Below are positions 21,349 to 63,914 of a stretch of DNA of 64,000 bases, piece by piece. The notes beneath the pieces were generated by a model, which saw nothing but the letters and a program-made list of their open reading frames with translations, was not told the DNA's origin and did no database searches. The position numbers and the translations under genes are program-made. The stretch comes from Candidatus Bathyarchaeota archaeon BA2. GTDB lineage: Archaea > Thermoproteota > Bathyarchaeia > Bathyarchaeales > Bathyarchaeaceae. Positions within the stretch are counted from its first letter, which is position 1. The number at the start of each line of letters is the position of its first letter. The stretch is from NCBI GenBank assembly GCA_001399795.1, contig LIHK01000056.1:89873-153872 (forward strand), read 5' to 3'.

Positions 21349-21474
21349 GGACAAAACGTACATGGCGCTTCGCGCCCTTAAAAGAAGCATGAAAAAGCCT
21401 TCAATTCTTCTCCCTTTAGCCAATTCATGGCTAATATGAACGTTTCTTGATGGAAGCATTTTTTCATGGCAAAA
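21349..21474 (-). repeat. Dispersed structured repeat, copy 1 (long form, minus orientation)
   Basis: The reverse complement aligns with 47686-47810 and 62745-62840. It contains hairpins TTAGCCA-TGAAT-TGGCTAA and GGCGC-GAA-GCGCC. Confidence 0.7.
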
Positions 21475-21513: not shown

Positions 21514-21996
21514 TCAAACTTCTTTTTCGTACGTTTGGACTAGCATTTCTTTAGCTTGTTCCCATAAACCCCCCTTCTTGTGAAAGCCAAGTTTGTCCAC
21601 ACATTTCTTACTTGCAATCTGATTTGGTAAAATATTCACATGGATTTTTTTGCATTTTTTCTTCTTAGCGAAGTTTATCAATTGCTTATACATGGTAGTG
21701 GCCAGGCCTCGCCCTTGATAGGATGGATGGATTGTTTGATGTTCTCCCAGGACAGTGTCCTTCTTGATGCTTGCTTTATATAAACCAACGATTCGACCGT
21801 CCACTCTAACCCCAAAATAGTAATAGTCCCCCTTCATCTCCTTCACTATTTCCTCTCGGCTTAGAGTTCTTTTCTTTCTCCATTTCTCAGGATATTCTAT
21901 TGCTGTGGGCCACACCTCCTTAAATAAACTTTCAATTTCAGCAGCATCCTTTGAGGATAAGAGTTCCACCCTAGTTTTATCCACTTGAAGCACCAC
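21514..21996 (-). CDS. GNAT-family N-acetyltransferase
   Basis: IHPSYQGRGLATTMYKQLINFAKKKKCKKIHVN (acetyl-CoA binding Q/RxxGxG/A motif). Confidence 0.8.
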   Translation of the reverse strand: MVLQVDKTRVELLSSKDAAEIESLFKEVWPTAIEYPEKWRKKRTLSREEIVKEMKGDYYYFGVRVDGRIVGLYKASIKKDTVLGEHQTIHPSYQGRGLATTMYKQLINFAKKKKCKKIHVNILPNQIASKKCVDKLGFHKKGGLWEQAKEMLVQTYEKEV

Positions 21997-22031
21997 TAAA
22001 TTAAAATCTTAACTTTTTAATTATTACAGGT

Positions 22032-22268
22032 ATGACAAATAAAAGAATAACACCTGAAAAATGTACTAATTGCTTAACCTGTCAGCTTATATGCTCTTAT
22101 TTGCATACGCGCAGTTTTAATCCCTCAAAATCAAAGATTAAAATAAAGCCTGGATATTTCAAAAATGGCGCTTGGATATCTAACCAAATAAGTTTTGAAA
22201 ATTGTGTGAAAGGATGTGGGCTCTGTATTAATTATTGCGTGTATGGCGCTATAATGGTGGATGAGTGA
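22032..22268 (+). CDS. Small 4Fe-4S ferredoxin-like protein coupled to AOR
   Basis: CTNCLTCQLIC and CVKGCGLCINYC motifs; 4-nt overlap with the downstream AOR gene. Confidence 0.6.
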   Translation: MTNKRITPEKCTNCLTCQLICSYLHTRSFNPSKSKIKIKPGYFKNGAWISNQISFENCVKGCGLCINYCVYGAIMVDE

Positions 22269-24211
22269 TGGCGTATTATGGGTATGCTGGCTCAATTCTT
22301 CGGGTGGATTTAACTGAAGAAAAAATCCGAAACGAGTTGCTTACTCAAGAACTTATAGAAAAATTCATAGGAGGATGGGGAATCAACAACAAGCTGTTCT
22401 ATGATCTCCAAAAGCCCAACATAGATCCTTTTTCACCCCAAAATCCAATTATAATGGGAGCTGGTCCTTTAGTTGGCACAATTGTTCCGGGAGCCAGCAA
22501 AATTGTTGGGACTACGAAATCCCCGATTGCCGATAAACAAGGAAAACATTTCATTGACAATGCTGTAGCTGGTAGTAGCAGATTCGGTGTTATGCTCAAA
22601 AATGCAGGTTACGATCATTTAATCGTAACTGGGAAAGCAAGAAAGCCTGTTTATCTAAAAATGATTGATGATGATGTGGAAATTTGCGGCGCAACTGCTC
22701 TTTGGGGGAAAAAAGACACCTACCAAACAACTGATTGGTTTATTGACAAATATGGAAGTTGCGGTGTAATTTCAATAGGGAAAGCTGGTGAAAATTTAGT
22801 AAGATATGCTATGGCTATAGTTGATTATTGCGCCACCCTAGGTAGATTCGGTTTTGGAGCCGTAATGGGTTCCAAGAATTTAAAAGCAATTATTGTCAAG
22901 GGCACAAAAGGGGTGAAAATCGCTAAACCAGAAGAGTTCCTAAGATTAACTAACGAGTGGAGAAAAGATACAAGCAAAATACCCCTCATTGAGGATTTCC
23001 GCACTTTAGGAATAGCATCGGGCTGGAATATTCACGCCCCTTTAGTTCGTGAGGGAGTTTGGAAATACTCAAAGTGGACTGAGTTATATGGTCCCGATAA
23101 ATGGCTTAAAGTAAAAAAGATGCAAAATTTAGCTTGCAATGCTTGTACACTAGCTTGCAGGGTCAATTATGAGGTAAGGGATGGGGAGTTCAAAGGGTTA
23201 ATTTCTTTCACTGGATTTTACATGCTCCCCGCTAGAGTTGGCCAGAGGCTAGAAATCGAGGATTATAGAAAGGCCGTTAAGCTGCTGGACATTTGCAATA
23301 GAACGGGTATGTGCTACTTCACAACTAGTGGCATAGTAAATTGGGTAACTAGACTTTATGAAAACGGAAACCTACCTCAACATAAGACAGAAGGCTTAGA
23401 GCTGAAGAGAAAATTTGATGTTTATCTTGATTTATTTAATAAAATAGCAAAAAGAGAAGGTTTTGGAGATCTTTTAGCCGATGGATGGTATCCAGCCTCA
23501 AAGAGGATAGGCGCAGATCCAGATGAATTTACAGAGGGTACTGGCATATTCAAGGGCGCCGATGTTATTCAAGACGCTAGATTTACTAAGTTACACCCAC
23601 AAGGATTTGCTTATTTAACAAATCCCAGACCACATCATGGAGGCCTTCAATCTCTTTACACTCTGCCAAATATAGATATTAGTTTACTTAGGGAGGATGC
23701 TAAGAGAATGGGCATTTCTGAGGAGGAACTTTATAGGATTTTTGCGTATACACCTGAATACGGAATGTTTAATGTTGCCAGATATGCAAAGCATTGCGAA
23801 GATCATATGGCTGTCCACAATTCTTTGGGTACTTGCATAGTGCACGCGCTTTGGGGATGGTTAGGATTAAAATACTTGAATACAGAGTTAATTGCTCAAA
23901 TATACTCGGCAGCAACAGGAATTGAAGTAGACGCTAGAGAGCTTAAAAAGCGCGGTGAAAGAGCTTTCAATCTTTTTAAGCTTCTTAATGTTAGAGAGGG
24001 CTTCTCAAGAAAAGATGATAATTGTTCAAAAATTTGGCTTACTCCAAGAAAGACTCCGGATGGGGTAAGAGTAATGATGGATTACTATGAAGAAAAACAA
24101 ATTTCAAAGGATGATATTGACAAGTTGTTAGATGACTACTACGATGAAAGAGGCTGGAAATTAGAGGACGGCACTCCCGAGAAGCAAAAATTAGCAGAAC
24201 TAGGACTTTAA
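22265..24211 (+). CDS. Aldehyde:ferredoxin oxidoreductase (tungstopterin AOR family)
   Basis: 648 aa; GSILRVDLT..., GAGPLVGT, GRFGFGAVMGSKNLKAIIV, CNACTLACR, and a C-terminal LDDYYDERGW.. motif shared with the other AORs in the window. Confidence 0.85.
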   Translation: MMAYYGYAGSILRVDLTEEKIRNELLTQELIEKFIGGWGINNKLFYDLQKPNIDPFSPQNPIIMGAGPLVGTIVPGASKIVGTTKSPIADKQGKHFIDNAVAGSSRFGVMLKNAGYDHLIVTGKARKPVYLKMIDDDVEICGATALWGKKDTYQTTDWFIDKYGSCGVISIGKAGENLVRYAMAIVDYCATLGRFGFGAVMGSKNLKAIIVKGTKGVKIAKPEEFLRLTNEWRKDTSKIPLIEDFRTLGIASGWNIHAPLVREGVWKYSKWTELYGPDKWLKVKKMQNLACNACTLACRVNYEVRDGEFKGLISFTGFYMLPARVGQRLEIEDYRKAVKLLDICNRTGMCYFTTSGIVNWVTRLYENGNLPQHKTEGLELKRKFDVYLDLFNKIAKREGFGDLLADGWYPASKRIGADPDEFTEGTGIFKGADVIQDARFTKLHPQGFAYLTNPRPHHGGLQSLYTLPNIDISLLREDAKRMGISEEELYRIFAYTPEYGMFNVARYAKHCEDHMAVHNSLGTCIVHALWGWLGLKYLNTELIAQIYSAATGIEVDARELKKRGERAFNLFKLLNVREGFSRKDDNCSKIWLTPRKTPDGVRVMMDYYEEKQISKDDIDKLLDDYYDERGWKLEDGTPEKQKLAELGL

Positions 24212-30050: not shown

Positions 30051-31274
30051 TTGAAGGGATACTCCCCTTCTAAATTTGGTGAGAGATCTAAAGTGAAATT
30101 AGAAGAATATTTAGGGGAGTTGTATCACTGTTTCCACTGCCATTTATGTAGCATGTCTAATTGGCATCGTCTTGATGCATGGGTTCCTATTTGTCCCAGC
30201 TTTGCGCGCTTCTGCTTTGAATCTTTTTTAGCTTCGGGACGAATAGAAATAACTCGAGCTATAATTGAAAAAGAAATAGATAAGCCTACCTCCCGCCTAC
30301 TCGAGAGCATATTTAGCTGCACTGGGTGTGGAGCATGTTATGAGCAGTGTAAAGGCCTTACAGGGTTTAAAGCAAATCATGTAGAGTTGTTTGAAGAGTT
30401 AAAAGCTAAATTGGTGGAGCTTGGCTGGGGGCCCTTAACAAAACATGCTGAGTTTTCCAGAAGCATCCGAGAAAACTATAACCCCTATAAGGAGCCTCAT
30501 GAAAAAAGAGCAGCCTGGCTTAAGAAAGATGTTCCAAAAAAGGCTGAAACCATATATTTTGTAGGGTGCACCTCATCCTACAGAACACACAAAATTGCGG
30601 AGGCAACTGTTGACGCCTTAGAGATAGCGGGAATCAACTTCAGAATAATGCATCCAGACGAGTGGTGTTGCGGTTCCCCTCTTCTACGCACCGGGCAAAG
30701 AAAAATGGTGAAGGATTTAGTGAGGCATAACGTAGACGCAATAAAAGCTAGTGGAGCAAGGAGAGTCGTTTTCTCTTGTGCGGGTTGCTACAGGACATTT
30801 AAGAAAGATTATCCCGCAGTCCTCGGCCAAGAATTGGGGTTCGATGTTTTACATACAACGGAATATTTTTCTCAATTAATAGAGGAAGGAAAATTAAAAC
30901 TAAAAAACATAGTTTCAGGAGTCATTACGTATCATGATCCATGCCATTTAGGAAGAGGGGTTGGATTGTATGAGCCTCCAAGAAAACTGTTAACAAGCAT
31001 GGTTGGTAACAAATTTGTTGAGATGAAAAGGAACAGGGGCGATGCGTGGTGTTGTGGGGCTGGGAGTGGAGTGAAGTCAGCTTTCCCGGACTTTGCTGTT
31101 TGGGCAGCCTTAGAACGTTTAAAGGAAGCTAAAGCTATAGGGGCATCAATCCTCTCTTCATCCTGTCCCTTCTGCAAACACAATTTTATGGATGCTTTAA
31201 AGCAAGCTCCAGCTGAACTTAAAACACTGAAAATTAGAGATATAAGCGAACTTGTAGCGGAGGGAGCGAAATGA
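30051..31274 (+). CDS. HdrD/GlcF-like Fe-S protein with two CCG domains (copy 1)
   Basis: CFHCHLCS, CTGCGACYEQC, EWCCGSPLLRTG, AWCCGAGSG, CPFCKHN. Confidence 0.75.
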   Translation: MKGYSPSKFGERSKVKLEEYLGELYHCFHCHLCSMSNWHRLDAWVPICPSFARFCFESFLASGRIEITRAIIEKEIDKPTSRLLESIFSCTGCGACYEQCKGLTGFKANHVELFEELKAKLVELGWGPLTKHAEFSRSIRENYNPYKEPHEKRAAWLKKDVPKKAETIYFVGCTSSYRTHKIAEATVDALEIAGINFRIMHPDEWCCGSPLLRTGQRKMVKDLVRHNVDAIKASGARRVVFSCAGCYRTFKKDYPAVLGQELGFDVLHTTEYFSQLIEEGKLKLKNIVSGVITYHDPCHLGRGVGLYEPPRKLLTSMVGNKFVEMKRNRGDAWCCGAGSGVKSAFPDFAVWAALERLKEAKAIGASILSSSCPFCKHNFMDALKQAPAELKTLKIRDISELVAEGAK

Positions 31275-41799: not shown

Positions 41800-43007
41800 G
41801 AGGTGTCGTGAGCATGCAAGGTTTAAGGGATTTAGAGAAATGGCGTAAATTCTCGTATTTATGTGCCCATTGCCGTTGTTGCTCCGCGGCGGATTATCAT
41901 ACGTTAGGAGAATATATGCAGATATGCCCTTCCGGAACATACTTTGGATTTGAAAGCTACTTTTCATCTGGCAAAATGGAAGTCATTCGTGGTTTGATAG
42001 AGGGACTGATTTCGAAACCATCAGAAAAACTACTCGAAATAGTTTATGTCTGTACCTTATGTGGTGCTTGCGAAAAAAACTGCGAGGAATTCACTCTGTT
42101 AGGAGAAGACTCTGGAGGCTTGACGCACATCTTTGAGGATGCTAGAGCCTTCCTCGTAGAAAGTGGGTGGGGGCCACTTGAGAAACATAAAGAGTTTGCC
42201 AGTAGCATCAGAGTTAATCACAATCCATACTTAGAACCGCATGAAAAAAGAGAAAGCTGGACAGAAAAAAGTTCGTTAAGAAAAGGGTCTCTGGTTTATT
42301 TCACAGGCTGTACTTCGTCTTATAGACAGAAGGAAGTGGCGAAGGCTACTGTTAAAGCATTGGAAGCAATGGAAGAAAAATTTGTGATAATGGGTAGCGA
42401 AGAATGGTGTTGTGGTTCTCCGCTTTTGAGGACAGGACAGATAGATCAGATAACTGAACTGGCTGAACATAATGTAAAAGCCTTAAAAGAAATAGGGGCT
42501 AAAAAAGTAATAACTTCTTGTGCAGGTTGCTATAGAACTTTAAAAAGCGAATACCCAAAAATATTAGGCGCACAACCAGACTTTGAAGTGGTGCATTCTT
42601 CTCAATTTTTTGCGGGGGCGCTTGACAAAAATAAATTGAAGCTCACTAAAGATGTTGATGCTACGGTTACCTACCATGATCCATGTCACCTGGGCAGGCA
42701 TATGGGCGTGTACGACGAACCGAGAAATCTTCTTAAAAAGATTCCAGACCTAAAACTGGTGGAAATGCCTAGGAGCCGACAAAATAGTTGGTGTTGTGGT
42801 GCGGGAGGCGGCGTCAAATCTGCGTTTCCAGATTTTGCGACATCAACAGCCGTTGAGAGATTGAGGGAGGCTGAGGCAATTGGAGTTAAAAAAATAGTGT
42901 CGATGTGTCCCTTTTGCAAACATAACCTCACAGACGCAGCCAAACTACTTAAGAACAAATTCGAAGTCTACGATGTTGTAGAGCTACTTTCAAAGGCAAT
43001 AGGCTAA
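41787..43007 (+). CDS. HdrD/GlcF-like Fe-S protein with two CCG domains (copy 2)
   Basis: CAHCRCCS, CTLCGACEKNC, EWCCGSPLLRTG, SWCCGAGGG, CPFCKHN; roughly half the residues are identical to copy 1 by eye. Confidence 0.75.
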   Translation: MASLGGVVSMQGLRDLEKWRKFSYLCAHCRCCSAADYHTLGEYMQICPSGTYFGFESYFSSGKMEVIRGLIEGLISKPSEKLLEIVYVCTLCGACEKNCEEFTLLGEDSGGLTHIFEDARAFLVESGWGPLEKHKEFASSIRVNHNPYLEPHEKRESWTEKSSLRKGSLVYFTGCTSSYRQKEVAKATVKALEAMEEKFVIMGSEEWCCGSPLLRTGQIDQITELAEHNVKALKEIGAKKVITSCAGCYRTLKSEYPKILGAQPDFEVVHSSQFFAGALDKNKLKLTKDVDATVTYHDPCHLGRHMGVYDEPRNLLKKIPDLKLVEMPRSRQNSWCCGAGGGVKSAFPDFATSTAVERLREAEAIGVKKIVSMCPFCKHNLTDAAKLLKNKFEVYDVVELLSKAIG

Positions 43008-45676: not shown

Positions 45677-47500
45677 TTGGAGGAGAAAGAAGAAAGAAAA
45701 AAGTTTTATGACGATAAAGGTCAAATAACGGCTAGAGAGCGCGATTACGTAAGGGAACTCTACGCTGTATCCAAAAAGTTCCTTCCAACCGAAAGAAGAA
45801 GAGCAATCTACTCTAGATTAGAGAAGCAATTTGGCGCAGACCCCCTCAGCCTTGTGGATTCAGAAATGTATAAACGGGGTGGGTACAGGCAATCAAAACG
45901 TAAACAAGAATTCGTTAAGTCGGGTCGACAAATTGCCATAGAAAGAGGCATACCAGCCTATAATCGAGCTGTTGGAATTCCTCTAGGTCAAAGAATTCTT
46001 GAACCTTACGTAATCACTGGGACTGATATTACAGTAGAACAGGATGATACTCATCATGTTAACAATCCAGCCATCCAACAGATGGTGGACGACATCAAGA
46101 GAACCACAATAGTCAACATCGACATCGCCCACAGAATGCTTCAAGTAAGGGCTGGAAAAGAAGTAACTCCGGAAACAATCAACCTCTACTTAGAAACCCT
46201 TAATCATACTATGTGCGGTGGCGCCGTAGCCCAAGAACACATGTCCGAGATTAATCCCTTGCTGGTGAAAGACGCGTATGCTAAGGTGATTACTGGAAGC
46301 GACGAAATTAAAGACGCTCTAGACAGAAGGTACGTCATTGATATTGACAGACTTTTTCACCCAACCAGGGCGGAGCAACTGAAGAAAGCCCTTGGCAACA
46401 GCATCTGGGTGGTTCTTAGAACCCCGACAATAGCGATAAGGATGGCTGATGGTGACGAGGCTCATAGGTGGGCTGCTATGCAGAACACGATGGCTTTTAT
46501 CGGATCCTACGGCCTTTCGGGAGAACACGTAGTTTCCGACCTAGCCTACTCCTTCAAGCACGCCAGAGTTGTAAACATGGGTAACAAAATGTGGTACCAA
46601 AGAATGCGCGGAAGGAATGAGCCCGGCGGCTTCCCAGACGGCTACATATGCGACTTCATCCAATCCGAGCGAGACCTACCGGCAAGACCTTTCTTGGAAG
46701 TTTCAGAGGAGGATCCGGAAGAGGCTAAGAAATATTCCCGTGCTATGTACGAAGGTATCGGCGCAATCGCAGCAGTTCTTGACAATATGATATGGCTGGG
46801 ATTCTACATGAGTGGCGGTATAGGATTCTCAAACACGGTATCCGCTGCAGGTCTCGCAGGAGGCGTAATAGAAGATATCACAGAAGAGCTTATTGAAACG
46901 ACCCACAGATATATCCGAGGTATAAAGAAGGTACCACCAAAATGGGATATTGTCAGATTCATAGTCGATATGATCATACAGTACGTGATGGAATCTTATG
47001 AAAAGTTCCCAGCATTGTCCGAATTCCATTGGGGAGGAGCCCATAAGGTTTCAATCATAGGTAGTATGGGTGCTGGTGTGGCTTCACTTCTCACAGGTAG
47101 TTCAACAATGGGCATGTGGGCTGGCCACTATGCTATAGCGCTGGTTATGAAAGAGGGGTGGTTGAGAACTGGATGGGCTGGACAAGAAATCCAGGATCAC
47201 ATAGGTTTGCCGAGCCTATGTAGCTTTAGGCCTGAAGAAGGCAATTTCGCGGAATTAAGAGGTCTTAACTACCCGATGCAATCATTCAGCGCAGCCCATG
47301 GTTCTCTAAGGGATGCAGCTATATATGGAGCAATGATAGGAAGAGGTTCAGCATGGAGTGCCAGTCCAGTGGTTAAGGTAGCTTTCGCTGATCCGCATCT
47401 GGTCTTTGACTTCAAGAATCCAAGATTATGCATTGCGAAAGCGTGTATAAAGCAATTCATGCCAGCCGGAGAAAGGGGCCCGTCGCTCCCAGCGCATTAG
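45677..47500 (+). CDS. mcrA: Divergent methyl/alkyl-coenzyme M reductase alpha subunit (ACR-like McrA)
   Basis: 607 aa; GGYRQSKRKQEF, ERGIPAYN, GKEVTPETINLYLE, MRGRNEPGG, YMSGGIGFSNTVSAAG, ELRGLNYP, FMPAGERG align with McrA landmarks. TTG is the only start candidate after the in-frame stop at 45635. Confidence 0.9.
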   Translation: MEEKEERKKFYDDKGQITARERDYVRELYAVSKKFLPTERRRAIYSRLEKQFGADPLSLVDSEMYKRGGYRQSKRKQEFVKSGRQIAIERGIPAYNRAVGIPLGQRILEPYVITGTDITVEQDDTHHVNNPAIQQMVDDIKRTTIVNIDIAHRMLQVRAGKEVTPETINLYLETLNHTMCGGAVAQEHMSEINPLLVKDAYAKVITGSDEIKDALDRRYVIDIDRLFHPTRAEQLKKALGNSIWVVLRTPTIAIRMADGDEAHRWAAMQNTMAFIGSYGLSGEHVVSDLAYSFKHARVVNMGNKMWYQRMRGRNEPGGFPDGYICDFIQSERDLPARPFLEVSEEDPEEAKKYSRAMYEGIGAIAAVLDNMIWLGFYMSGGIGFSNTVSAAGLAGGVIEDITEELIETTHRYIRGIKKVPPKWDIVRFIVDMIIQYVMESYEKFPALSEFHWGGAHKVSIIGSMGAGVASLLTGSSTMGMWAGHYAIALVMKEGWLRTGWAGQEIQDHIGLPSLCSFRPEEGNFAELRGLNYPMQSFSAAHGSLRDAAIYGAMIGRGSAWSASPVVKVAFADPHLVFDFKNPRLCIAKACIKQFMPAGERGPSLPAH

Positions 47501-47685
47501 CGTACTCTTGTTAATACGCCTAATGGATTAATTTTCCCTCTTAAAGCCACATTAAATAAGGGTTACTACCGTTTTTTGAAGTAACTTTTACTTTTTCTTT
47601 CTTCGAAACTCTAGTGTTAGGAGTTTTCAGTTCCAATCTGAAATCTTTGAGATAGACTAAATTAGGGGGATCGACCTTTCTGGCT

Positions 47686-47810
47686 TTTTGCCATGAAAAA
47701 ATGCTTCCACCAAGAAACGTCCATGTTAGCCAATCCATGGCTAAAGGGAGAAGAATTGAGGCTATTTCATGCTCTTTTAAAGGCGCGAAGCGCCATGTAC
47801 GTTTAGTCGG
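47686..47810 (+). repeat. Dispersed structured repeat, copy 2 (long form)
   Basis: TTTTGCCATGAAAAAATGCTTCCACCAAGAAACGTCCATGTTAGCCAATCCATGGCTAAAGGGAGAAGAATTGAGGCTATTTCATGCTCTTTTAAAGGCGCGAAGCGCCATGTACGTTTAGTCGG; 186 nt downstream of mcrA. Confidence 0.7.
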
Positions 47811-48013
47811 CAACGCCTGATATCGTCTTCCAGCCCTTCGGATTCTTCAACTCCAAAATCTCTCCAAACCCCTCTTCGCGACTCATTTAAACTGCTCTCC
47901 CTAACATCGGCAAATAATCTTCTAACTTCTTCCATTTGTGGTAGCACCGATCAATCCTGAATATACTTTCATGCTGGCAGCGCAAATTTCGAGACAATAA
48001 AAAGGGGAGAATC

Positions 48014-48583
48014 TTAGGCTTTAAACCGTTTAGTCAAGCTCGTCATTACCGGAACTAATTTTATTCCTGTCGCCAAATCTCCTTCCAGTTTGAACTGACC
48101 TGCTATGTATCCCTTAACTGGATCAACATCACCTATCAACAGTCCTATCAAAGTCTTCGCATCTGACGAAACCTTGAGATCAGGGGCATCCAAAAGGGCT
48201 GAGCCACCAGAAATTTTTCCACCACTCAGTTTAAAATGACCCTTTAAGGGGCTGTCGGTGGCTTCAAAGTTAACCTTTATTTCCCCTGCATTTACCACTT
48301 TTTTCTTAACTTCCTCGTCTTTCTCAACGAGTATGCCTACACCTTCCCACAAAACGTCCGTGAATGCTGCTGATGCTTCAGGTGCCTCGGTCACGAATTT
48401 TCTAACGTCGATCGATCTTAAGTTATTTACTAACCTCAATGCTAAATCCGGCATTGCCTCCATCAGGTTTCCAACGCCAAATGCTTTTACTCTCTCCACT
48501 AAAGGAGGGAGAGCAGTTTTCAGCTCATTTTCTGACATCTTGAGCGCTTTGTCTACGTCTTTCTTCAATTCTTCCGCACTCAT
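48014..48583 (-). CDS. SCP2-like domain protein (189 aa)
   Basis: DLKVSSDAKTLIGLLIGDVDPVKGYIAGQFKLEGDLATGIKLVPVM is an SCP2 C-terminal motif. Confidence 0.7.
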   Translation of the reverse strand: MSAEELKKDVDKALKMSENELKTALPPLVERVKAFGVGNLMEAMPDLALRLVNNLRSIDVRKFVTEAPEASAAFTDVLWEGVGILVEKDEEVKKKVVNAGEIKVNFEATDSPLKGHFKLSGGKISGGSALLDAPDLKVSSDAKTLIGLLIGDVDPVKGYIAGQFKLEGDLATGIKLVPVMTSLTKRFKA

Positions 48584-55549: not shown

Positions 55550-56941
55550 TTGTCAAACCTGTCTTTAAAATATAAAGATACATTAGACCTATACGATGAT
55601 CATTCCAATTGTATTGCAAAAGAAGTGCCGCTGCAAGCTCTCTCACCGTTATATAACCCCTATATGAGGGAGGTTTTAAATCTTTTCAAAAGAACAGCTT
55701 TTATTGACCTAGCCAAGCTGGAGCAATATGTAAAGTCTGGAAGAGCAGGCTGGGAAACAGTCGTTGGGCAAGATGAGATTCAAATGCCTTGGTACGGTAG
55801 GGACCTGCCTATGGTTGAGCGTTCAGAGGAAATAGCTGAGAGAATAAAAGAGAAAATCGCAAAATTCGATGACGGAGAGGAGGAGCTTGTGAAGCCTGTA
55901 GCAGGTGGCAAGCTAATCATTGTTAAGATACCGAGAAGAATGATGGAAGTTTCAGCCAGCCGCGACCCACCGCTCACATGGACGATGGTGGCTTTATGTC
56001 AAGCTATATCTGAAACTTTCAATTTGAATCCTGAAACTGACCCGGATGGCTGCAACATGGTGAGAGGAGCCATCTTTGGAAGGTACCCTCAATCCCCTGA
56101 GTTGCCTCCTGGTGGACCTGTTTTCGGACTTTTGAGGCAAAGCAACATCGTGGACGGTTTGGGGAGCGGGTTTAGAGGAATAATGGTGAATCACATTGTG
56201 GCCCTAGTTAATAAAAGAACTATGGACGGTGTTGCTTTAGCCACAATTTTGGAACAAGGTGCACAGTGGGAGATGGGTAACGTGTTGGGATGGTTTGAAA
56301 GATATAATCTCCTTGCGTCAGCCTACCAAGGCTTCAACGCAAACAATCTTGTTCTAGACCTCGTTCTGGAGAACAGGGAGGGAACTATAGGAGACGTTGC
56401 ACGTAGCACGGTGAAAAGGGCTGTAGAGGACGGGGTCATAAAAGTCAAAAAAACTTTTCCATCGGGGTACAAGGTCTATAGTACGAGTGACTATCCTCTT
56501 TGGAACGCATATGGTTGCGCTGGAGTGCTAGCTGCGGTAATAGTTAACGTTGGAGCGAGTAGAGCTGCACAAAGTGTTTCAACCGTTACAGGTTATTTTG
56601 GCGACCACTTGATTTTTGAGACTGGGGGGTTACCTGACCCTGACACTGGCAGAATTGAAGGCACAGGCATAGGCTATGCGTTCTACACCCATTCCATATA
56701 TGGCGGAGCGGGTCCTGGTGCGTATACTTTAGACCATGTTGTCGTAAGGAGTACCTCAGGTTTCTTAACTCCATGTGTCGTTGCAGGTATGTGTCTCGAT
56801 TCTGGAACTCAACTTTTCTCTCCTGAAATGACCTCCAGTGCTTTGTTCAAGATAAGAGATCACATGCCGTTACTCAACGAGCCGTTGAAAAAAGTGGCTG
56901 AGGCAGCTGAAAAGGTTAAAGGAGAATTAACAAAGGCATAG
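55550..56941 (+). CDS. mcrB: Methyl/alkyl-coenzyme M reductase beta subunit
   Basis: YKDTLDLYDD at the N-terminus; HSIYGGAGPGAYTLDHVVVRSTSGFLTPCVVAGMCLDSGTQLFSPE parallels the canonical HSIYGGGGPG...CVAAA..DAGTQMFSPE; TTG start. Confidence 0.9.
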   Translation: MSNLSLKYKDTLDLYDDHSNCIAKEVPLQALSPLYNPYMREVLNLFKRTAFIDLAKLEQYVKSGRAGWETVVGQDEIQMPWYGRDLPMVERSEEIAERIKEKIAKFDDGEEELVKPVAGGKLIIVKIPRRMMEVSASRDPPLTWTMVALCQAISETFNLNPETDPDGCNMVRGAIFGRYPQSPELPPGGPVFGLLRQSNIVDGLGSGFRGIMVNHIVALVNKRTMDGVALATILEQGAQWEMGNVLGWFERYNLLASAYQGFNANNLVLDLVLENREGTIGDVARSTVKRAVEDGVIKVKKTFPSGYKVYSTSDYPLWNAYGCAGVLAAVIVNVGASRAAQSVSTVTGYFGDHLIFETGGLPDPDTGRIEGTGIGYAFYTHSIYGGAGPGAYTLDHVVVRSTSGFLTPCVVAGMCLDSGTQLFSPEMTSSALFKIRDHMPLLNEPLKKVAEAAEKVKGELTKA

Positions 56942-56942
56942 T

Positions 56943-57761
56943 TTGAAGGTGATGCACGTGGCAAGTGAAAAGAGAGAGGAAAAAAGTGAATTCGAGCCTC
57001 AAATCTACCCTGGACAGGATGAGGTGTCAGAAAGAAGGAGAAAGCTTTGGGATAAGCGTCGACGCCTAACAAAGTATCGAGACGTACCAGACGATGACAT
57101 AACCCGCCTTCTGGGTCATAGGCCGGTTGGAGCACTATATGTAAGTGTCCATCCACCTCTTGATGAACTTATAGAACCATACGACCCGATAAAAAGTCTA
57201 GTTGCTCCGACACCAGGGGCGAGAGCAGGGGATAGGATAAGATTTGCTCAGTTTTCAGATAGTTTTTGGCATCCTCCAATAACTCCCTATGCTAGGCAAA
57301 GACTCTATTTTAATAGACTCAGAGGTGTCGATGTTGTCACCTATAGCGGCAGAACAATGTTAGAGATGAGGGAGCGGGATTTAGAAACAGCTGTAAAGCC
57401 TCTAATCGAAACCGAAGTATTCAACCCAGCTAGAACAAGTTTGAAAGGAATAACTATTCACGGACACTCTTTAAGGCTTGATGAAGATGGCCTAATGTTC
57501 GACGCTAGGCGAAGATTCGTTTACGATAAAGAGACAGGCGAGGTAGTTTACATTAAGGATCAATTCGGCAAAGTTTTAGACAGGCCAGTGCCAGTCGGGC
57601 GCCCCCCCTCAGAAGAGGAATGTAGAAAACTGAGTATAACCTACAGTTGGGATACCCGACAATTTAAATCCAGAACCGAAGTAATAGAGCTAATCTCAAG
57701 AGTTGCAAATATGAGGGTATTGGCAGGATTCAATCCCGAATCAATCAACGAGGAGATTTAA
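56943..57761 (+). CDS. mcrG: Methyl/alkyl-coenzyme M reductase gamma subunit
   Basis: PQIYPGQDEVSERRRK, FAQFSDSFWHPP, MLEMRERDLE, GHSLRLDEDGLMFD align with McrG. The true start may be ATG 56952 or GTG 56958. Confidence 0.9.
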   Translation: MKVMHVASEKREEKSEFEPQIYPGQDEVSERRRKLWDKRRRLTKYRDVPDDDITRLLGHRPVGALYVSVHPPLDELIEPYDPIKSLVAPTPGARAGDRIRFAQFSDSFWHPPITPYARQRLYFNRLRGVDVVTYSGRTMLEMRERDLETAVKPLIETEVFNPARTSLKGITIHGHSLRLDEDGLMFDARRRFVYDKETGEVVYIKDQFGKVLDRPVPVGRPPSEEECRKLSITYSWDTRQFKSRTEVIELISRVANMRVLAGFNPESINEEI

Positions 57762-58096
57762 ACCTGAGGTTATGGCGCTCCCAAACTAACCAATATTATT
57801 AAAGCTCCCTTTGGATCGTATACATTTTTTCTTTATCTCGGAACACGTTAGTTTGCGATCCTGTAACCTGTACATTAAGTCCGAAGTTAAATGTAAGCTA
57901 ACCAATTTTTATCTCCTGATTCCAAGTCCTTGCTTAGAGATAGATGAATTAACGACTTCTTTAAGTAAATATCTAGTTTCCAAAGCATGCCGCATTTACA
58001 ACAACTATCTGTGGTGAAGATGAAAACCCGCCTGCTAGTTCTTCTAGACTTAGGTTAACAAACTTTTTTGCATGCCAATTTTTAATTAGTACAGCT

Positions 58097-58225
58097 ATGA
58101 CAAATAAAAGAATAACACCCGAAAAATGTACTAATTGCTTAACCTGTCAACTTATATGCTCTTATCTACATACACGCAGTTTTAACCCCTCAAAATTAAG
58201 GATTAAGATTAAAATAACGCTCTAA
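58097..58225 (+). pseudogene. Truncated copy (42 codons) of the AOR-coupled ferredoxin-like gene
   Basis: MTNKRITPEKCTNCLTCQLICSYLHTRSFNPSK is identical to the first 33 aa of ORF 22032. There are 6 nucleotide differences in about 100 nt, all synonymous, followed by divergence and a stop. Confidence 0.6.
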
Positions 58226-58365
58226 AATATGAATATTGCCGTTTCATGGCTTAAACTAACCCCTTTTCAGCCAAATAAAGCTTAAGAAAATTTTACGCCA
58301 AACCCCTGAAGGTGGAAACTTTAAATAAGAAAATGGGCAGCTCAGAACTTTGGAGAGTAGAGTGA

Positions 58366-59187
58366 ATGGAGCTGAAACTTCTTCGAGTAGACCTTTCGAC
58401 AGAAATCATCAAAGAAGAGAAAGTAGACGAAGCAACAACCAAGAAGTTTGTGGGAGGCCGTGGAGTCGGAGTAAAGATCCTTTTCGATGAACTTAAACCA
58501 GGAACAGACCCATTAGGTCCAGAAAACAAGCTGATCTTCATGACGGGTCCGGCTACAGGAACAGCATTTCCAGCGAGTGGAAGATTCCACGTAATTACCA
58601 AATCCCCCCTCACAGGCAGGATCGGGGATACAAACTGCGGTGGCAACTGGGGTCCAGAACTGAGATTCGCTGGCTTTGAGGGTATCATTTTTGAAGGAAA
58701 GGCGAAGGAACCTGTTTACCTTTGGGTTCACGAAGGCGAAGCCGAACTGCGAAGCGCTAGAAAATATTGGGGTAAGGGGGTCTGGGACACTGAAGATGGG
58801 ATTTGTGAAGAACTCGGGGAACCCAAGGCAAAGATAGCGAGCATAGGGCCAGCAGGCGAGAACCTAGTTTTATCCGCAGCCATTATGAACGACAAACACA
58901 GAGCGGCTGGCAGAACGGCTGCAGGAGCTGTAATGGGTTCCAAAAACTTGAAAGCTATAGCAGTCCATGGAACAGCCAAACCCCCCGTGGCTGACCCAGA
59001 AGGATTACGAGAGACTGTAAAGAGAATTCTAGAAAAACTTAAAGAGAACATGGTCACTGGCGAATCGCTTCCAACCTATGGGACCTCTGCCCTAATTAAT
59101 GTTATCAATGCATTTGGCATCTTTCCGACTCGTAACTTCCAAACTGGAGTATTCCCTACGGCTGAGAAGATAAGTGGTGAAACAATA
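58366..59187 (+). pseudogene. AOR-family gene, N-terminal fragment (codons 1-274), interrupted by an insertion
   Basis: LLRVDLS..., GGRGVGVKILFDE, GPATGT, AGAVMGSKNLKAIAVHGT, ...FPTAEKISGETI, then out-of-family sequence and a stop. Confidence 0.8.
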
Positions 59188-61496
59188 AATTTCATGTTTT
59201 CCATAAATCTATTTTGAAATCTCCAATTAGCAAAAGCGGTGAACATGGATTGGTAAGTATGTACCACTCAAAACACGTACTCCGCTCCTAAAAACAAAAG
59301 GATAAAATAACGGTTATACCGACTATTTGGTTCTCTAGGGGTCTAGAATTGTTTGGTTACATGGGAAAGATTTTAAGAGTTGACTTGTCAAAATCAAAAA
59401 TAACCAAAGAATTTCCTGATGAGAACACTCTTAAGATGTTTTTGGGCGGAAGCGGACTAGCAACCAAATATCTCTTTGATGAAGTTAAAAAGGGAACAGA
59501 CCCCTTGGGCCCAGAAAACAAGCTAATATTCACGACTGGACCTTTAACTGGAACGCCGTCACCTACTACTGGAAGATATACGGTAGTCGCCAAATCTCCC
59601 CTTACTGGTTTTTGGGGGCAGGCAAACTCAGGTGGTTTTTGGGGAGCAACTTTCAAAAGGTCGGGTTTTGACGGAGTAATATTTGAAGGTATCTCACCGA
59701 AACCAGTCTACCTTGTTACCGATGACGGGAAGGCCGAGCTTAAAGATGCAAAAGACCTCTGGGGTAAGAACACTTCAGAAACTACAAGATTGATCAAAGA
59801 GGAGCTTGGAGAGAATTTCCGTGTCACTTGTATAGGCGTTGCTGGAGAGAATCTAGTCAAATACGCTGCTATCATAAATGACGCTGATAGACCAAACTGG
59901 GGCAGAGCGGCTGGAAGATGCGGAATGGGAACCGTAATGGGTTCGAAACGCTTGAAAGCTATCGCTTCAAGAGGGACAATAAAGATCGAAGTGGCAAAGG
60001 AAGATGCTTACAGGGAAGAGGCCAAAAAAAGATACAACTGGGTTAAGGAGGAAGTAGAGAAAACAGCCACTCTTTCATACTTCTTTAGGAGGTATGGAAC
60101 GGCCGTTGCCCTTGATTTCGTGAACATTCGGGGTGGACTTGCAACCAGAAATTGGCAAACCGGCGTCTTTCAAGGTGCAGACAATATAAACGGACCTGCA
60201 ATTGTAGAAAAGATTCTTACAGACAAAAAAGCTTGCTTTGCGTGTCCACTCTCTTGTGGAAGAATATCTGAAATTAAAACAGGACCATATGCAAGCAAAG
60301 GAGAAGGCCCGGAATGGCAAGCTCTTGCAGCTTTTGGTAGTAAGTGTGGAATCGACAATCTAGAAGCAATTACCTACGGGCAATTTCTATGCAATGAATA
60401 TGGTCTCGATTTTATTTCTGCTGGAAATACAATAGCTTTTGCTATGGAATGCTATGAGAAAGGAGTATTGACCAAAAAAGACACCGACGGATTGGAGCTT
60501 AAATTTGCCGATTCTGATGTCATGATAGAACTTGTGCACAAAATAGCTAAAAGGGAAGGCGTTGGAAATCTACTAGCCGAAGGAACAAAGATCGTCTCAG
60601 AAAAACTGGATAAAGGAACCGAAAAATTTGCTATGCATGTTAAAGGTCTAGAGCTGCCAGGTTATGATCCCAGAGCTGCCAAGATAGCTGGGCTAGCCTA
60701 TGCTACTGCAAATCGAGGAGGTTGCCACACGACGGCTTACATAGCAGTCTTGGTTTTTATTGGAATACCCTCCTTTCTTGAAGAAATCGATGTTGGAGAT
60801 ATACTTCAGGAAATTCCTGAAACTGCTAAGGTTGTCAAAGATCTGGAGGATGTGCTTGCCGTTTTTGATGCGATGGGGGGATGCAAATTTATGGGAATGG
60901 TTTCAACCACAGAGGACTGGGCAACTTTGATATCGAATCTTACCGGCTGGGAATTTACTACAAAGGACTTTAGAAGAACTGGTGAGAGAATTTACAATCT
61001 TGAAAGAGCCTTTAACATAAGAGAGGGATTAACTAGAGCCGATGATACTCTTCCAAAGCGTTTACTAGAGGAACCAATGCCCGAAGGCCCAGCTGAAGGA
61101 CAGGTAGTAAATCTAAATCCACTCTTGGATGCTTATTACGAGTTTCGTGGATGGGACAAGAAAACTGGCAAACCAACTCCTGAGAAGCTTAAAGAACTTG
61201 GACTAGATGAGGTAATTAAAGAGATTTACTAGCGATAAAACCTAAACCCAAACACCTGATTATTCCTTGCCCGAAATAAAAGAAAACTTAAGAATAGCTA
61301 AGATGAAGGAAAAGGGAGAAATAAGTGGTTAAACTAGTTTTCTAAACTGCTAGAAGTCCACTTTCTCCCCCTTGAACGCACAAACAACCAACACCCTAGC
61401 TTATACACAAAAGGTTATTGTTTGAAGTTGGCATTTAAGCCTTAAGTATAAAGTTCGGAGGTTTTAACCATGGAAAATATGCACACCTAGACAATA
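59188..61496. other. 2309-bp inserted segment carrying an intact AOR paralog, flanked by 6-bp direct repeat ACAATA
   Basis: ACAATA lies at 59182-59187 and 61491-61496. Excising the segment fuses ...ISGETI to AKTVLVKNKPCWGCTIACGR in frame. Imperfect subterminal inverted repeat CAT(G/A)TTTTCCAT. No transposase gene. Confidence 0.6.
59349..61232 (+). CDS. Aldehyde:ferredoxin oxidoreductase (tungstopterin AOR family), intact
   Basis: 627 aa; KILRVDLS, GGSGLATKYLFDE, GPLTGT, CFACPLSCGR, GLELPGYDPRAAKIAGLAYATANRGGCH, DAYYEFRGWDKKTGKPT. Confidence 0.9.
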   Translation: MFGYMGKILRVDLSKSKITKEFPDENTLKMFLGGSGLATKYLFDEVKKGTDPLGPENKLIFTTGPLTGTPSPTTGRYTVVAKSPLTGFWGQANSGGFWGATFKRSGFDGVIFEGISPKPVYLVTDDGKAELKDAKDLWGKNTSETTRLIKEELGENFRVTCIGVAGENLVKYAAIINDADRPNWGRAAGRCGMGTVMGSKRLKAIASRGTIKIEVAKEDAYREEAKKRYNWVKEEVEKTATLSYFFRRYGTAVALDFVNIRGGLATRNWQTGVFQGADNINGPAIVEKILTDKKACFACPLSCGRISEIKTGPYASKGEGPEWQALAAFGSKCGIDNLEAITYGQFLCNEYGLDFISAGNTIAFAMECYEKGVLTKKDTDGLELKFADSDVMIELVHKIAKREGVGNLLAEGTKIVSEKLDKGTEKFAMHVKGLELPGYDPRAAKIAGLAYATANRGGCHTTAYIAVLVFIGIPSFLEEIDVGDILQEIPETAKVVKDLEDVLAVFDAMGGCKFMGMVSTTEDWATLISNLTGWEFTTKDFRRTGERIYNLERAFNIREGLTRADDTLPKRLLEEPMPEGPAEGQVVNLNPLLDAYYEFRGWDKKTGKPTPEKLKELGLDEVIKEIY

Positions 61497-62463
61497 GCGA
61501 AAACCGTTTTAGTTAAGAATAAGCCCTGCTGGGGTTGCACCATAGCCTGTGGACGAGTTAGCCGCGTGGTCAAGCCGCCTTATCAAGTTGAGGGCGAAGG
61601 TCCTGAGTACGAAACCGACTGGTCCCTGGGAGCTCAATGCGGTATCGACGATCTGGACGCCATAACTAAAGCTCACAATATTTGCGATGAAATGGGCATT
61701 GATCCAATATCCTTTGGAAACACCGTAGGTTGTGCAATGGAACTTTATGAGAAGGGAAAAATACCCAAGGAAAAACTCTACGGACTTGAATTAAAGTTTG
61801 GTAATTCTCAAGCAATAGTGGAACTGGCTTGGAGAACTGCCTACCGCATTGGTTTTGGCAACGACATAGCGTTAGGGGCTAAACGTTTAGCAGAGAAGTA
61901 TGGAGCTCCTGAGATCGCCATGCACGTTAAAGGCTTGGAACTCCCTGCCTACGACCCACGAGGCGCCAAGGGGTACGGTTTGGCGTATGCCACATCTAAC
62001 CGTGGAGGATGTCACCTAAGAGCCTACATGATCGCCCCAGAAATTCTAGGTATTCCAGAGAAGCTCGACCCGCTCAAGACAGAAGGGAAGGCATCATGGG
62101 TTAAAACGCTCCAAGACGTCTGCTCAATATGCGACTCGCTTGTTCGTATGCAAATTCTTGGCCTTTGCGCTAGGGGCTGAAGACCTCATCAATCCCATTA
62201 CGGGATGGAATTGGTCCACAGACGACCTCTTAAAGACCGGTGACCGCATCTACACGCTTGAGCGCATGTTCATCAACCGAGAGGGCTTCGACCGAAAAGA
62301 CGACACACTCCCACTGAGGTTACTGAAGGAACCCATGCCTGAAGGTCCCGTCAAAGGGCATGTTGTTGAGCTAGAAAAGATGCTTGATGAATACTACGAG
62401 GCCAGAGGCTGGAAAAACGGCAAGCCCACAAAAGAGAAACTAGAGGAGCTAGAGTTAACTTAA
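61491..62463 (+). pseudogene. AOR-family gene, C-terminal fragment (continuation of 58366-59187) with an additional 1-nt frameshift near 62144
   Basis: The frame opens exactly at 61491 after a TAG: TIAKTVLVKNKPCWGCTIACGRVSRVVKPPYQVEGEGPEYE...GLELPAYDPRGAKGYGLAYATSNRGGCH. DSLV then shifts frame into CKFLAFALGAEDL...EYYEARGWKNGKPT. Confidence 0.8.
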
Positions 62464-62498: not shown

Positions 62499-62759
62499 AT
62501 GCCTAAAGTTACTGTTCGGGCGTTTGCCACCTTGAACGGACTTCTCGGATCAAAAACCATGGATGTTTTCACCCTTGGCTCAACAATTAGGGAGCTGATA
62601 GACCTTATTGCGACAGAGTATAACCCACAATTCAAGGATCGGTTAATTGACCCAAAAAAAGGCGAGGTTCATAAATTCTACAGAATACTCATTAACGGTC
62701 GGGATATTGATTTTCTGGATATATTGGAAACAAAAATGAAAGAGGGCAACATTTATTAG
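62499..62759 (+). CDS. MoaD/ThiS-like beta-grasp protein, apparently C-terminally truncated (no terminal Gly-Gly)
   Basis: MPKVTVRAFATLNGLLGSKTMDV...ILINGRDIDFLDILETKMKEGNIY*. The stop codon lies inside repeat copy 3. Confidence 0.55.
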   Translation: MPKVTVRAFATLNGLLGSKTMDVFTLGSTIRELIDLIATEYNPQFKDRLIDPKKGEVHKFYRILINGRDIDFLDILETKMKEGNIY

Positions 62760-62840
62760 CCATGAATTGGCTAAAGGGAGAGGAATTGAAGGTTTTTCAT
62801 GCTCCTTTTAAGGGCGCGAAGCGTCATGTACGTTTAGTCG
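62745..62840 (+). repeat. Dispersed structured repeat, copy 3 (short form)
   Basis: ..TTAGCCATGAATTGGCTAAAGGGAGAGGAATTGAAGGTTTTTCATGCTCCTTTTAAGGGCGCGAAGCGTCATGTACGTTTAGTCG; overlaps the 3' end of the MoaD-like ORF. Confidence 0.7.
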
Positions 62841-62939: not shown

Positions 62940-63914
62940 TTATCCATGGGAAAAATTGCCCGTAGAGTTCGGGAGAGGCAGCCTCAACTCTTCATATAAT
63001 ACTTTTGAAAAGTCTTTTCCACCAAGAATACCCATAGCATCTGCACGACAGCGTTGGCAGTGCCTAAATACTGGCATAATGCGTTCCACTTGTTCTCGGG
63101 TTTGCTTTAGTCGTTCGCATGTTGGTGGAGGTATATGGCTTAGCTTGTGTTGAGGTATTAATGGAATGATGTTGATTATCGAAGCTCCCGCCTCTTGGAC
63201 AGCTTTAGCTGTAGCCTCTATGTGATTTTGATTTATGCTAGGTATGAGGACGGTGTTCACTTTTACTGCCAAACCATTCTTAACCGCTTCTTCGATTCCA
63301 GATAATTGCGCCTGTATAAGGTGATTCGAAGCTTCTACCCCATGCAATAACTTGCCGTTAACTCGAACATGCGAATATATTTTGGCAGCTATCCTCGGAT
63401 TCACAGCATGGACGCTCACAGTTACACTTTTCACATTCAAATCAGCAAATTTCTTTGCTTCTTCTTCCAATTTTAATCCATTTGTACTGAAACATTTAAT
63501 GAGATGAGGATAATGTTGATCTACCAAGGTGAAGGTTTCAAGCGCGTGGTTAGTAGCGAGGGGGTCTCCGGGCCCAGCAACCCCAACCACAGCAATTTCA
63601 GGACATATTTCAATTGCTTTTCGAAGAATAAATAGGGCTTCCCTTGGACTTAGAATGGAACAAGCGACCCCAGGCCGAAACTCAGTCTTATTAAAAGACA
63701 GAACGCAAAAATTGCATTGGATATTGCATTCTGGGGAGATGGGCAAATGGACACGCCCAATTTTATGGAGCTGAATAGTTTTGTTAAAGCATGGATGAAC
63801 CCGAGTAATATGAGAGAAATTTATTTCGGCAATATCACGAATTTTGTTTCTCCAAACAAACTTATTTCCCCTATATTCTTCCTCAGTTCTGGGATGATTA
63901 TCCTCCACCCGCAA
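62940..63914 (-). CDS. nifB: NifB-like radical SAM protein
   Basis: HPCFNKTIQLHKIGRVHLPISPECNIQCNFCVLSFNKTEFRPGVACSILSP...VVGVAGPGDPLAT parallels the NifB core (HPC..., APACNIQCNYC, RPGV, GIAGPGDPLA). Confidence 0.75.
   Translation of the reverse strand: MRVEDNHPRTEEEYRGNKFVWRNKIRDIAEINFSHITRVHPCFNKTIQLHKIGRVHLPISPECNIQCNFCVLSFNKTEFRPGVACSILSPREALFILRKAIEICPEIAVVGVAGPGDPLATNHALETFTLVDQHYPHLIKCFSTNGLKLEEEAKKFADLNVKSVTVSVHAVNPRIAAKIYSHVRVNGKLLHGVEASNHLIQAQLSGIEEAVKNGLAVKVNTVLIPSINQNHIEATAKAVQEAGASIINIIPLIPQHKLSHIPPPTCERLKQTREQVERIMPVFRHCQRCRADAMGILGGKDFSKVLYEELRLPLPNSTGNFSHG

Follow-up and report, generated by a model that had tools for sequence, protein, structure and literature searches.

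A dispersed repeat in Candidatus Bathyarchaeota archaeon BA2, probably a MITE-like derivative of an IS110-family insertion sequence

In this study, we characterized a dispersed repeat of Candidatus Bathyarchaeota archaeon BA2, one copy of which lies beside mcrA in a 64,000-nucleotide stretch of contig LIHK01000056.1 (positions 89,873 to 153,872), here called the window. To judge from its sequence, the repeat is very probably a non-autonomous deletion derivative of an IS110-family insertion sequence (IS), comparable to a MITE (miniature inverted-repeat transposable element). Since it has neither terminal inverted repeats nor a regular target-site duplication, as expected for IS110, we call it MITE-like rather than a MITE in the strict sense. 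A first-pass annotation, made from the letters of the window alone, had put forward a 3′-untranslated-region (3′-UTR) or terminator element, a small non-coding RNA and a MITE-like element as candidates; the last of these is upheld, in an IS110-family form without terminal inverted repeats, and the RNA candidates are not. The BA2 element is a genomic parasite of an ordinary sort rather than a conserved 3′-UTR RNA. The apparent structured RNA beside mcrA is thereby replaced by a plain transposon explanation, and current understanding is not overturned.

Homology of the repeat to IS110-family elements

The repeat is confirmed as genuine, with four known copies: three within the window (A, B and C) and one (D) on a separate contig of the same metagenome assembly. 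The first-pass annotation had located the three window copies correctly; alignment and a repeat finder refined their ends and agreed that copy A runs in the reverse orientation to B and C.

Copy A, 21351-21474 (+): full mini-element of 124 nt, written from left end to right end of the putative parental IS
Copy B, 47686-47807 (-): full mini-element of 122 nt
Copy C, ~62752/62756-62838 (-): truncated or decayed; left-end part and hairpin 1 kept, right-end part missing or diverged
Copy D, L004:5291-5414: on another contig of the BA2 assembly

A 23-mer, GGCGCGAAGCGYCATGTACGTTT, occurs three times in the window and was absent from 100 dinucleotide shuffles, and a profile of the copies matched them at E = 1e-30 to 1e-43 with no further match in the window. 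In the orientation of the first-pass annotation, the first ~40 nt of A and B have no recognizable equivalent in copy C. Copy D was discovered through a protein-collection search with concatenated peptides from six-frame translations of A-C, which gave a single matching protein. The first-pass annotation had called for a search for further copies; one was found, and it lies between co-directional genes. Exact-pattern scans of a genome collection (two patterns), a first metagenome scan and a scan of a viral collection gave no real match, the viral matches being confined to the pattern itself. The window was not returned by these scans either, indicating that the BA2 genome is absent from those collections. 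Two Logan contigs from independent assemblies (L002 and L003) both terminate at the identical base inside copy B, as expected of de Bruijn assemblers at a multi-copy repeat.

A second metagenome scan with an independent pattern gave 120 loci, mostly chance matches, of which profile filtering left six with similarity extending well past the pattern. These six loci share with BA2 a module at the 3′ side (again in the orientation of the first-pass annotation), TTTTTCATGCTyCTTTTAAGGGCGCGAAGCGCCATGTACGTTT. In two of them (L096 and L084), an IS110-family transposase (PF01548 + PF02371) is encoded on the opposite strand, starting slightly more than 100 nt from the module. A search with the transposase protein returned 1,381 homologues at E <= 1e-60, mostly on contigs of 1.3-4 kb, and the module or a diverged version of it was found upstream of the transposase, in the same place, in every close locus retrieved (L129, L130-132, L143, L144-147). 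The DEDD recombinase with both Pfam domains was identified in L096, L084 and the entries P0078-P0197, which include L129-L147. The same protein search of viral contigs gave no match.

Read in the direction of the transposase, the full-length elements begin (A)C|TAAACGTACATGGCGCTTCGCGCCCTTAAAAGrAGCATGAAAAAGC..., and the BA2 copies are identical to the first 50 nt of the L096 and L130 elements at 46-48 of 50 positions. After the transposase stop, the elements end ...GCGrAAAAGCTTTTTCATGGCAAAA, which is the reverse complement of the 5′ end described in the first-pass annotation (TTTTGCCATGAAAAAATGC). The sequence TTTTTCATGGCAAAA, which forms the other terminus of BA2 copies A, B, and D, stands directly 3′ of the transposase stop in L096, and close variants occupy the same place in L130, L084, L143, and L144. 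In the reciprocal direction, a profile built solely from seven full-length left ends detected exactly the four BA2 copies, at E = 6e-12 to 5e-7. Its matches lie at 21355-21414 (+) in A (E = 5.7e-12), 47804-47749 (-) in B (E = 4.8e-7) and 62834-62778 (-) in C (E = 1.9e-10). They are limited to profile positions 1 to ~60 and run on the strand opposite to that taken as sense in the first-pass annotation.

Each mini-element can therefore be read on the IS strand, opposite to the earlier sense orientation, as ~50-75 nt of IS left end, a short junction and ~25-45 nt of IS right end. The left-end part holds the tip AC|TAAACGTACATG, the hairpin GGCGC-TTC-GCGCC (hairpin 2) and the left subterminal inverted repeat GCATGAAAAAGC; the right-end part holds the right subterminal inverted repeat followed by the tip ...GCATTTTTTCATGGCAAAA. 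The subterminal inverted repeats lie ~35 nt from the left tip and ~5 nt from the right tip, and there is no terminal inverted repeat. The features are as follows (strands are those of copy B).

Left-end tip (AC|TAAACG on the minus strand): 47800-47807 in B (-), 21351-21358 in A, 62831-62838 in C; same as the tip of the full-length ISs L096 and L130
Hairpin 2 (GGCGC-TTC-GCGCC on the IS strand): 47782-47794 in B (-), 21364-21376 in A, 62813-62825 in C; ~10 nt inside the left end
Left subterminal inverted repeat: GCATGAAATAGC at 47761-47772 in B (-), GCATGAAAAAGC at 21387-21398 in A, 62791-62802 in C
Hairpin 1, perfect 7-bp palindrome with a 5-nt loop: 47726-47744 in B, 21416-21434 in A, 62756-62774 in C; where left- and right-derived parts join
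Right end, subterminal inverted repeat and tip (GCATTTTTTCATGGCAAAA on the IS strand): 47686-47704 in B (-), 21456-21474 in A; matches the sequence after the transposase stop in full-length ISs

Hairpin 2 is kept in all full-length relatives, with an outer pair of G-C in four and A-T (A-U) in two and with loops TTC, GGTG, and GTG. In L084, L143, and L144, divergence of the transposase is accompanied by divergence of both the hairpin and the subterminal repeats. Hairpin 1 is confined to the BA2 lineage and absent from the related elements.

Several of the related loci are themselves incomplete. The closest full-length IS copies (L096 and L130) are damaged: the L096 transposase has one in-frame stop (L096:1472-1474), and in L130-132 the called gene has 293 aa (L130:852-1733) while transposase-like coding sequence runs on beyond it. 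In other metagenomes there are also pieces that lack a transposase. A BA2-type left end with a 21-nt insertion lies beside a MobA-like gene at L081:2665-2762(-) and is identical in L040. At L089:2905-3002(-), beside a MazE/PIN pair, a left end is truncated after ~110 nt and has no transposase, and at L118:1155-1253(-) a left end is followed by a divergent non-coding region, also without a transposase. In a further type of IS (P0114-type, L133-L142, 64% transposase identity), the crossover is separated by ~10 nt from the left subterminal repeat and by 43 nt from the right one, the reverse of the distances in the BA2-type family (~35 nt left, 6-8 nt right). In this type the hairpin-bearing spacer belongs to the right end, and an A/T-rich box would face the left end only after circularization; both orientations of the spacer between the subterminal repeats align well, owing to the inverted repeats.

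Bridge-RNA features of the full-length relatives

IS110-group elements carry a bridge RNA in their long left end (PMC11208160). In the full-length relatives of the BA2 element, the true transposase start lies ~250-290 nt from the left tip, making the left end long and non-coding; the N-terminal ~28 residues of the longest transposase open reading frames (ORFs; MGLEPGWQI...) are really conserved RNA. Three segments of this region, designated by their approximate positions, change in step with the junctions of the element that carries them, as observed in up to six different elements.

Left-end RNA regions: L096:631-878; L130:601-851; L084:1262-1508(-); L143:90-340; L144:912-1160
Segment ~103: complement of the right junction, extending 2-3 nt into the host flank; variants CAAAAAC, CAAAATTA, AGAACAC
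Segment ~127: same sequence as the left junction, extending 2-5 nt into the flank; variants AACTAAAC, TTAACTAAAC, GCTAAAC, GATAAAATGG
Segment ~181: identical to the right-end tip; variants ATGGCAAA, ATGGCAGA, ATGGCATA, ATGGCAAG

RNAalifold applied to seven left ends predicted a long closing stem and two internal loops, with 10 compensatory pairs. In the predicted fold, segments ~103 and ~127 lie on the two strands of loop 1 and segment ~181 in loop 2. The strand logic matches that of IS621, in which the left guides pair with the bottom strand, and the right guides and handshake bases pair across the left donor (LD), core and right target (RT) on the top strand (PMC11208158): the same-sense segments would correspond to the left guides, and the antisense segment across LD-core-RT to the right target guide with the handshake bases. 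Taken together, the predicted left-end RNA of the full-length relatives carries the signature of a bridge RNA. Rfam gave no match at E <= 1 on six related loci and none at gathering thresholds on the window, where ARAGORN found no tRNA.

The guide-like segments reach into host flanks outside the shared sequence, which places the recombination junctions at the outer edges of that sequence. A more distant relative, represented by 10 loci with three left flanks and five right flanks, likewise terminates at the outer limits of the homologous stretch. The subterminal inverted repeats of the subfamily are 11-12 nt long (GCATGAAAAAGC and GCTTTTTCATGG).

None of segments ~103, ~127, and ~181 is present in the BA2 copies. 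A left-end profile and a transposase tblastn detected no guide-RNA body and no transposase remnant in the window or in L001-L004, nor did the profile alone in L005. No other transposase was found in the window.

Origin of the mini-element and competing explanations

The mini-element would have arisen by one internal deletion, in which the transposase gene was lost along with the body of the left-end guide RNA. The internal junction, hairpin 1 and a length of 122-124 nt are common to copies A, B, and D, and the flanks of the three are unrelated; this suggests a single deletion followed by spread. During this spread to new sites, the mini-element would have kept the donor sequences on both sides of the crossover, and the recombinase and a bridge RNA with a matching donor loop were presumably supplied in trans by a full-length copy. 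Such mobilization is plausible because a 22-bp donor suffices in the laboratory when the bridge RNA is provided in trans (PMC11208160). The LD and right donor (RD) of the mini-element would be those recognized by an L096- or L130-type guide (segment ~181 and part of ~127). A cognate full-length element would thus have to match the ends ...CATGGCAAAA (LD) and TAAACGTAC... (RD), or ...CATGGCAAAA-AC-TAAACGTAC... in the joined form. Where the left- and right-derived parts were joined, the junction region happens to form the palindrome of hairpin 1. The BA2 mini-elements may be natural donor-only elements, a counterpart to the laboratory finding with short donors.

Several observations weigh against this origin. 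The left junction is always ..AC|TAAACG, with the four flanks GGAC, CGAC, CGAC, and ATAC, but the right junctions read CAAAA|TT, |AG, and |AT rather than AC, so that no clean duplication of a core dinucleotide is evident. Apart from a weak CGAC on the left, the four insertion sites have no motif in common, which is unusual for a target-specific family. A full-length cognate IS was not found in the ~84 kb of BA2 sequence covered (the window, L004 and ~10 kb of L005), which holds only the four copies, and the nearest full-length elements (L096 and L130) come from other metagenomes. Finally, the stretch from left-end nt ~78 to the right end aligns weakly to the full-length relatives and may derive from the 3′ end of the transposase gene or from elsewhere.

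The first-pass annotation had favored a structured RNA, transcribed from its sense strand as a 3′-UTR element, terminator or small non-coding RNA; selection would then maintain hairpins 1 and 2. Its description of the sequence was accurate: hairpin 1 has the stem TTAGCCA/TGGCTAA and loops TGAAT and ATCCA, and hairpin 2 reads GGCGC-GAA-GCGCC on that strand, with GCGTC in copy C. Two hairpins are indeed predicted in every copy, runs of T4-T6 occur on both element strands, and all copies lie at gene 3′ ends. Oligo-T is used in archaeal termination. The inferences drawn from these features do not hold, however. The loop difference had been taken as variation that preserves the stem, but reverse-complementing TGAAT gives ATTCA, which differs from ATCCA at one position; the loop of copy B is inverted relative to A, C, and D, a single DNA-level event within a perfect palindrome and not five substitutions. 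The G-U wobble cited as a mark of sense-strand RNA is one substitution in the decayed copy C, and the alternation of G-C and A-T in the outer pair of hairpin 2 across the family fits either strand, or DNA. In the four-copy alignment, none of the 28 pairs in both hairpins and two possible long-range helices is changed on both sides, the variation consisting of a single G-U and two uncompensated mismatches. Folding energies are ordinary on either strand (z-scores -0.7 to -1.8), and to this are added the lack of Rfam matches and the absence of hairpin 1 beyond BA2. Each window copy does lie 3′ of a same-strand gene (GNAT, mcrA and MoaD-like), as had been noted. Since all three occupy spacers between convergent genes, however, either orientation would be 3′ of a same-strand gene, and the position is uninformative about the transcribed strand. 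The element was not found next to mcrA in BA1 (L007 and L008) or in a bathyarchaeal contig from JGI (L006), a weak test because gene order differs there. Moreover, what is conserved as a module is a transposon left end, which points in the opposite direction. A functional structured RNA is accordingly very improbable.

Other explanations accept the link to IS110 and differ in what the repeat is. IS110-family elements often target repeated extragenic palindromes (PMC12288879), and an IS flanked by the halves of a split repeat formally has the same layout as one flanked by its own left and right ends; the 125-nt sequence could then be a host repeat of this kind, and the "ends" the halves of the target. 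This is hardly credible in view of the guide-like segments, which match 2-5 nt beyond the outer edges of the shared region and, in the case of segment ~181, the right-end tip itself, co-varying with it in four variants. The hairpin and subterminal repeats also change along with the transposase, and the flanks outside the shared region are unrelated at all loci. It is also quite unlikely that the copies are several full-length insertions that decayed in place and never moved as a mini-element. Copy C is clearly decayed and L089 holds a truncated left end without a transposase, but three independent deletions would not give the same junction, hairpin 1 and length at the three unrelated sites of A, B, and D. 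A use to which the host or the IS has put an IS110-derived mini-element, whether in terminating transcription from both sides between convergent genes or in encoding a small RNA, is compatible with the deletion origin and seems unlikely, though less so than the foregoing. In its favor are the T runs on both strands, an A/T-rich box (CCCTTAAAAG) after hairpin 2, an internal stretch of copy B (CATGGACGTTT) complementary to the copy's own left tip (AAACGTACATG) and the precedent of MITEPpu9, which carries a small RNA (sRNA) gene. The box, however, is not conserved in the relatives (TTAGACG, TTAGATG). The complementarity has uncompensated mismatches, and its ACGTTT part corresponds, in alignments with L084 and L143, to the transposase gene's 3′ end; the left tips of these two elements do not match this part. 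The junction region also contains a near-copy of the right-end tip (TTCATGGCTAA vs. TTCATGGCAAA) ahead of CATGGACGTTT. A more speculative idea, to which we give little credence, is that the mini-element encodes a minimal guide-like RNA of its own on the IS strand, which might recruit a resident bridge recombinase or act as an antisense regulator of the parental IS. If true, a stripped-down donor-binding loop would make the element a guide-carrying satellite of IS110 elements.

Two further candidates were rejected. A portable archaeal promoter (CTTTTAAG / CTTAAAAG box) was discarded because the box is not conserved in relatives. A long-range stem of AAACGTyCAT with ATGTACGTTT has uncompensated mismatches, and a portion of it corresponds in alignment to transposase 3′ sequence in relatives whose left tips are different.

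An IS110-derived MITE-like element is already known: MITEPpu9, alongside ISPpu9, in Pseudomonas putida KT2440 (PMC12288879). Like the BA2 element, it occurs in several copies without a linked transposase gene, and its movement is thought to use IS machinery in trans. Unlike the BA2 element, it carries the sRNA gene ssr9, inserts into repetitive extragenic palindromic (REP) sequences and resides in a bacterium. The BA2 element occurs in an archaeon, lacks the guide RNA, has no evident common target and consists of a left and a right end with 11-12-nt subterminal inverted repeats.

The full-length relatives resemble IS621 and the IS110 group (PMC11208160, PMC11208158) in their DEDD/IS110 recombinase, long left and short right end, absence of terminal inverted repeats, two-loop left-end RNA and published strand logic; the BA2 copies differ from that group in having neither the recombinase nor the loops. 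In this subfamily a left-end RNA, typical of the IS110 group, occurs together with subterminal inverted repeats of 11-12 nt, a feature usually linked to the IS1111 group, and the RNA has no Rfam match. The core dinucleotide of the subfamily is not CT, unlike that of IS621. The 1,381 transposase homologues point to a large uncurated IS110-type subfamily in environmental metagenomes.

Classical MITEs, such as the SM elements of Sulfolobus, are likewise small, non-coding, dispersed and mostly intergenic products of internal deletion in an autonomous IS, but they possess terminal inverted repeats, and DDE transposases give them target-site duplications of fixed length. The first-pass annotation had suggested looking for target-site duplications, and no consistent one was found across the four insertion sites. 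Palindrome-associated elements derived from IS200/IS605, and REP/RAYT systems, share with the BA2 element the lack of terminal inverted repeats and target duplication and the presence of subterminal hairpins. An element of the IS200/IS605 type, suggested by the GCGAAGC mini-hairpin, was nevertheless rejected, since the neighboring gene in every full-length relative encodes an IS110-type DEDD recombinase and not Y1 TnpA or TnpB.

Gene context and other repeats in the window

The neighbors of the window copies, identified by Pfam, are as follows.

Copy A: ABC ATPase gene 20531-21316 (+) and GNAT gene 21514-21996 (-), convergent
Copy B: mcrA 45677-47500 (+) and SCP2-domain gene 48014-48583 (-), convergent
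Copy C: ThiS/MoaD-like gene 62499-62759 (+) and radical SAM gene 62940-63914 (-), convergent

Copy A lies 34 nt past the stop of the ABC ATPase gene and 39 nt past that of the convergent GNAT gene. Copy C covers the final codons and the stop (62757-62759) of the ThiS/MoaD-like ORF. The protein encoded at 62499-62759 matches the ThiS Pfam profile as far as position 64 of 76, with three residues left to its C-terminus. In the ThiS/MoaD family, the Gly-Gly end normally sits in the C-terminal part, and this part of the protein appears to have been lost through copy C. Copy D is flanked by two co-directional genes; it encodes the last 38 residues and stop codon of a 672-aa DUF3131 protein (L004), and the downstream gene begins 20 nt beyond it. 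In two of the four cases, then, the C-terminus of a host protein (ThiS/MoaD-like and DUF3131) is rewritten by the insertion. For annotation, these two BA2 genes can be flagged as having rewritten 3′ ends, and the assembly breaks at copies are explained. Copies would persist where harm is least, namely in convergent spacers and at the very 3′ ends of genes, and terminator or promoter side-effects on host genes are possible.

The element has no coding sequence of its own. As the first-pass annotation had correctly stated, small ORFs through the copies are not conserved: in all six frames they are disrupted by indels between copies. A protein-coding fragment was considered, since a 38-codon ORF spans copy B exactly and a composite frame is readable, and it was rejected because +1/-1 indels shift the frames between copies and the sole database protein sharing the sequence merely runs into copy D. 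Small ORFs of 52-90 aa have been called across copy B in public assemblies (47541-47813, -, of the window; L001:11865-12062 and 12101-12259). The 90-aa ORF has no Pfam match; these ORFs, open by chance and without a family match, are likely spurious gene calls.

The mcrA-like gene beside copy B (45677-47500) is divergent and lies ~8 kb from mcrB and mcrG (55550-57761), with opposite-strand genes between them; L006 and L007, two relatives, have all three subunit genes side by side. The McrA-like protein of the window shows 100% identity to the database entry from BA2.

Two other repeats were noticed in the window. The aldehyde:ferredoxin oxidoreductase (AOR) gene at 22265-24211 is preceded by a 134-nt stretch that recurs at 58079-58212 with 91% identity (regions 22014-22173 and 58079-58244). 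Behind the second copy, an AOR paralogue is present as fragments only (residues 11-223, 286-417, and 536-638, in the regions 58366-59217 and 61512-62463), which flank a complete, different AOR gene at 59349-61232. The arrangement resembles a disrupted duplicate whose promoter or leader is conserved. A 97-nt stretch at 30422-30518 is 70% identical to 42164-42260, both lying in CCG-domain (HdrD-like) genes; this similarity is paralogous coding sequence and not a dispersed element.

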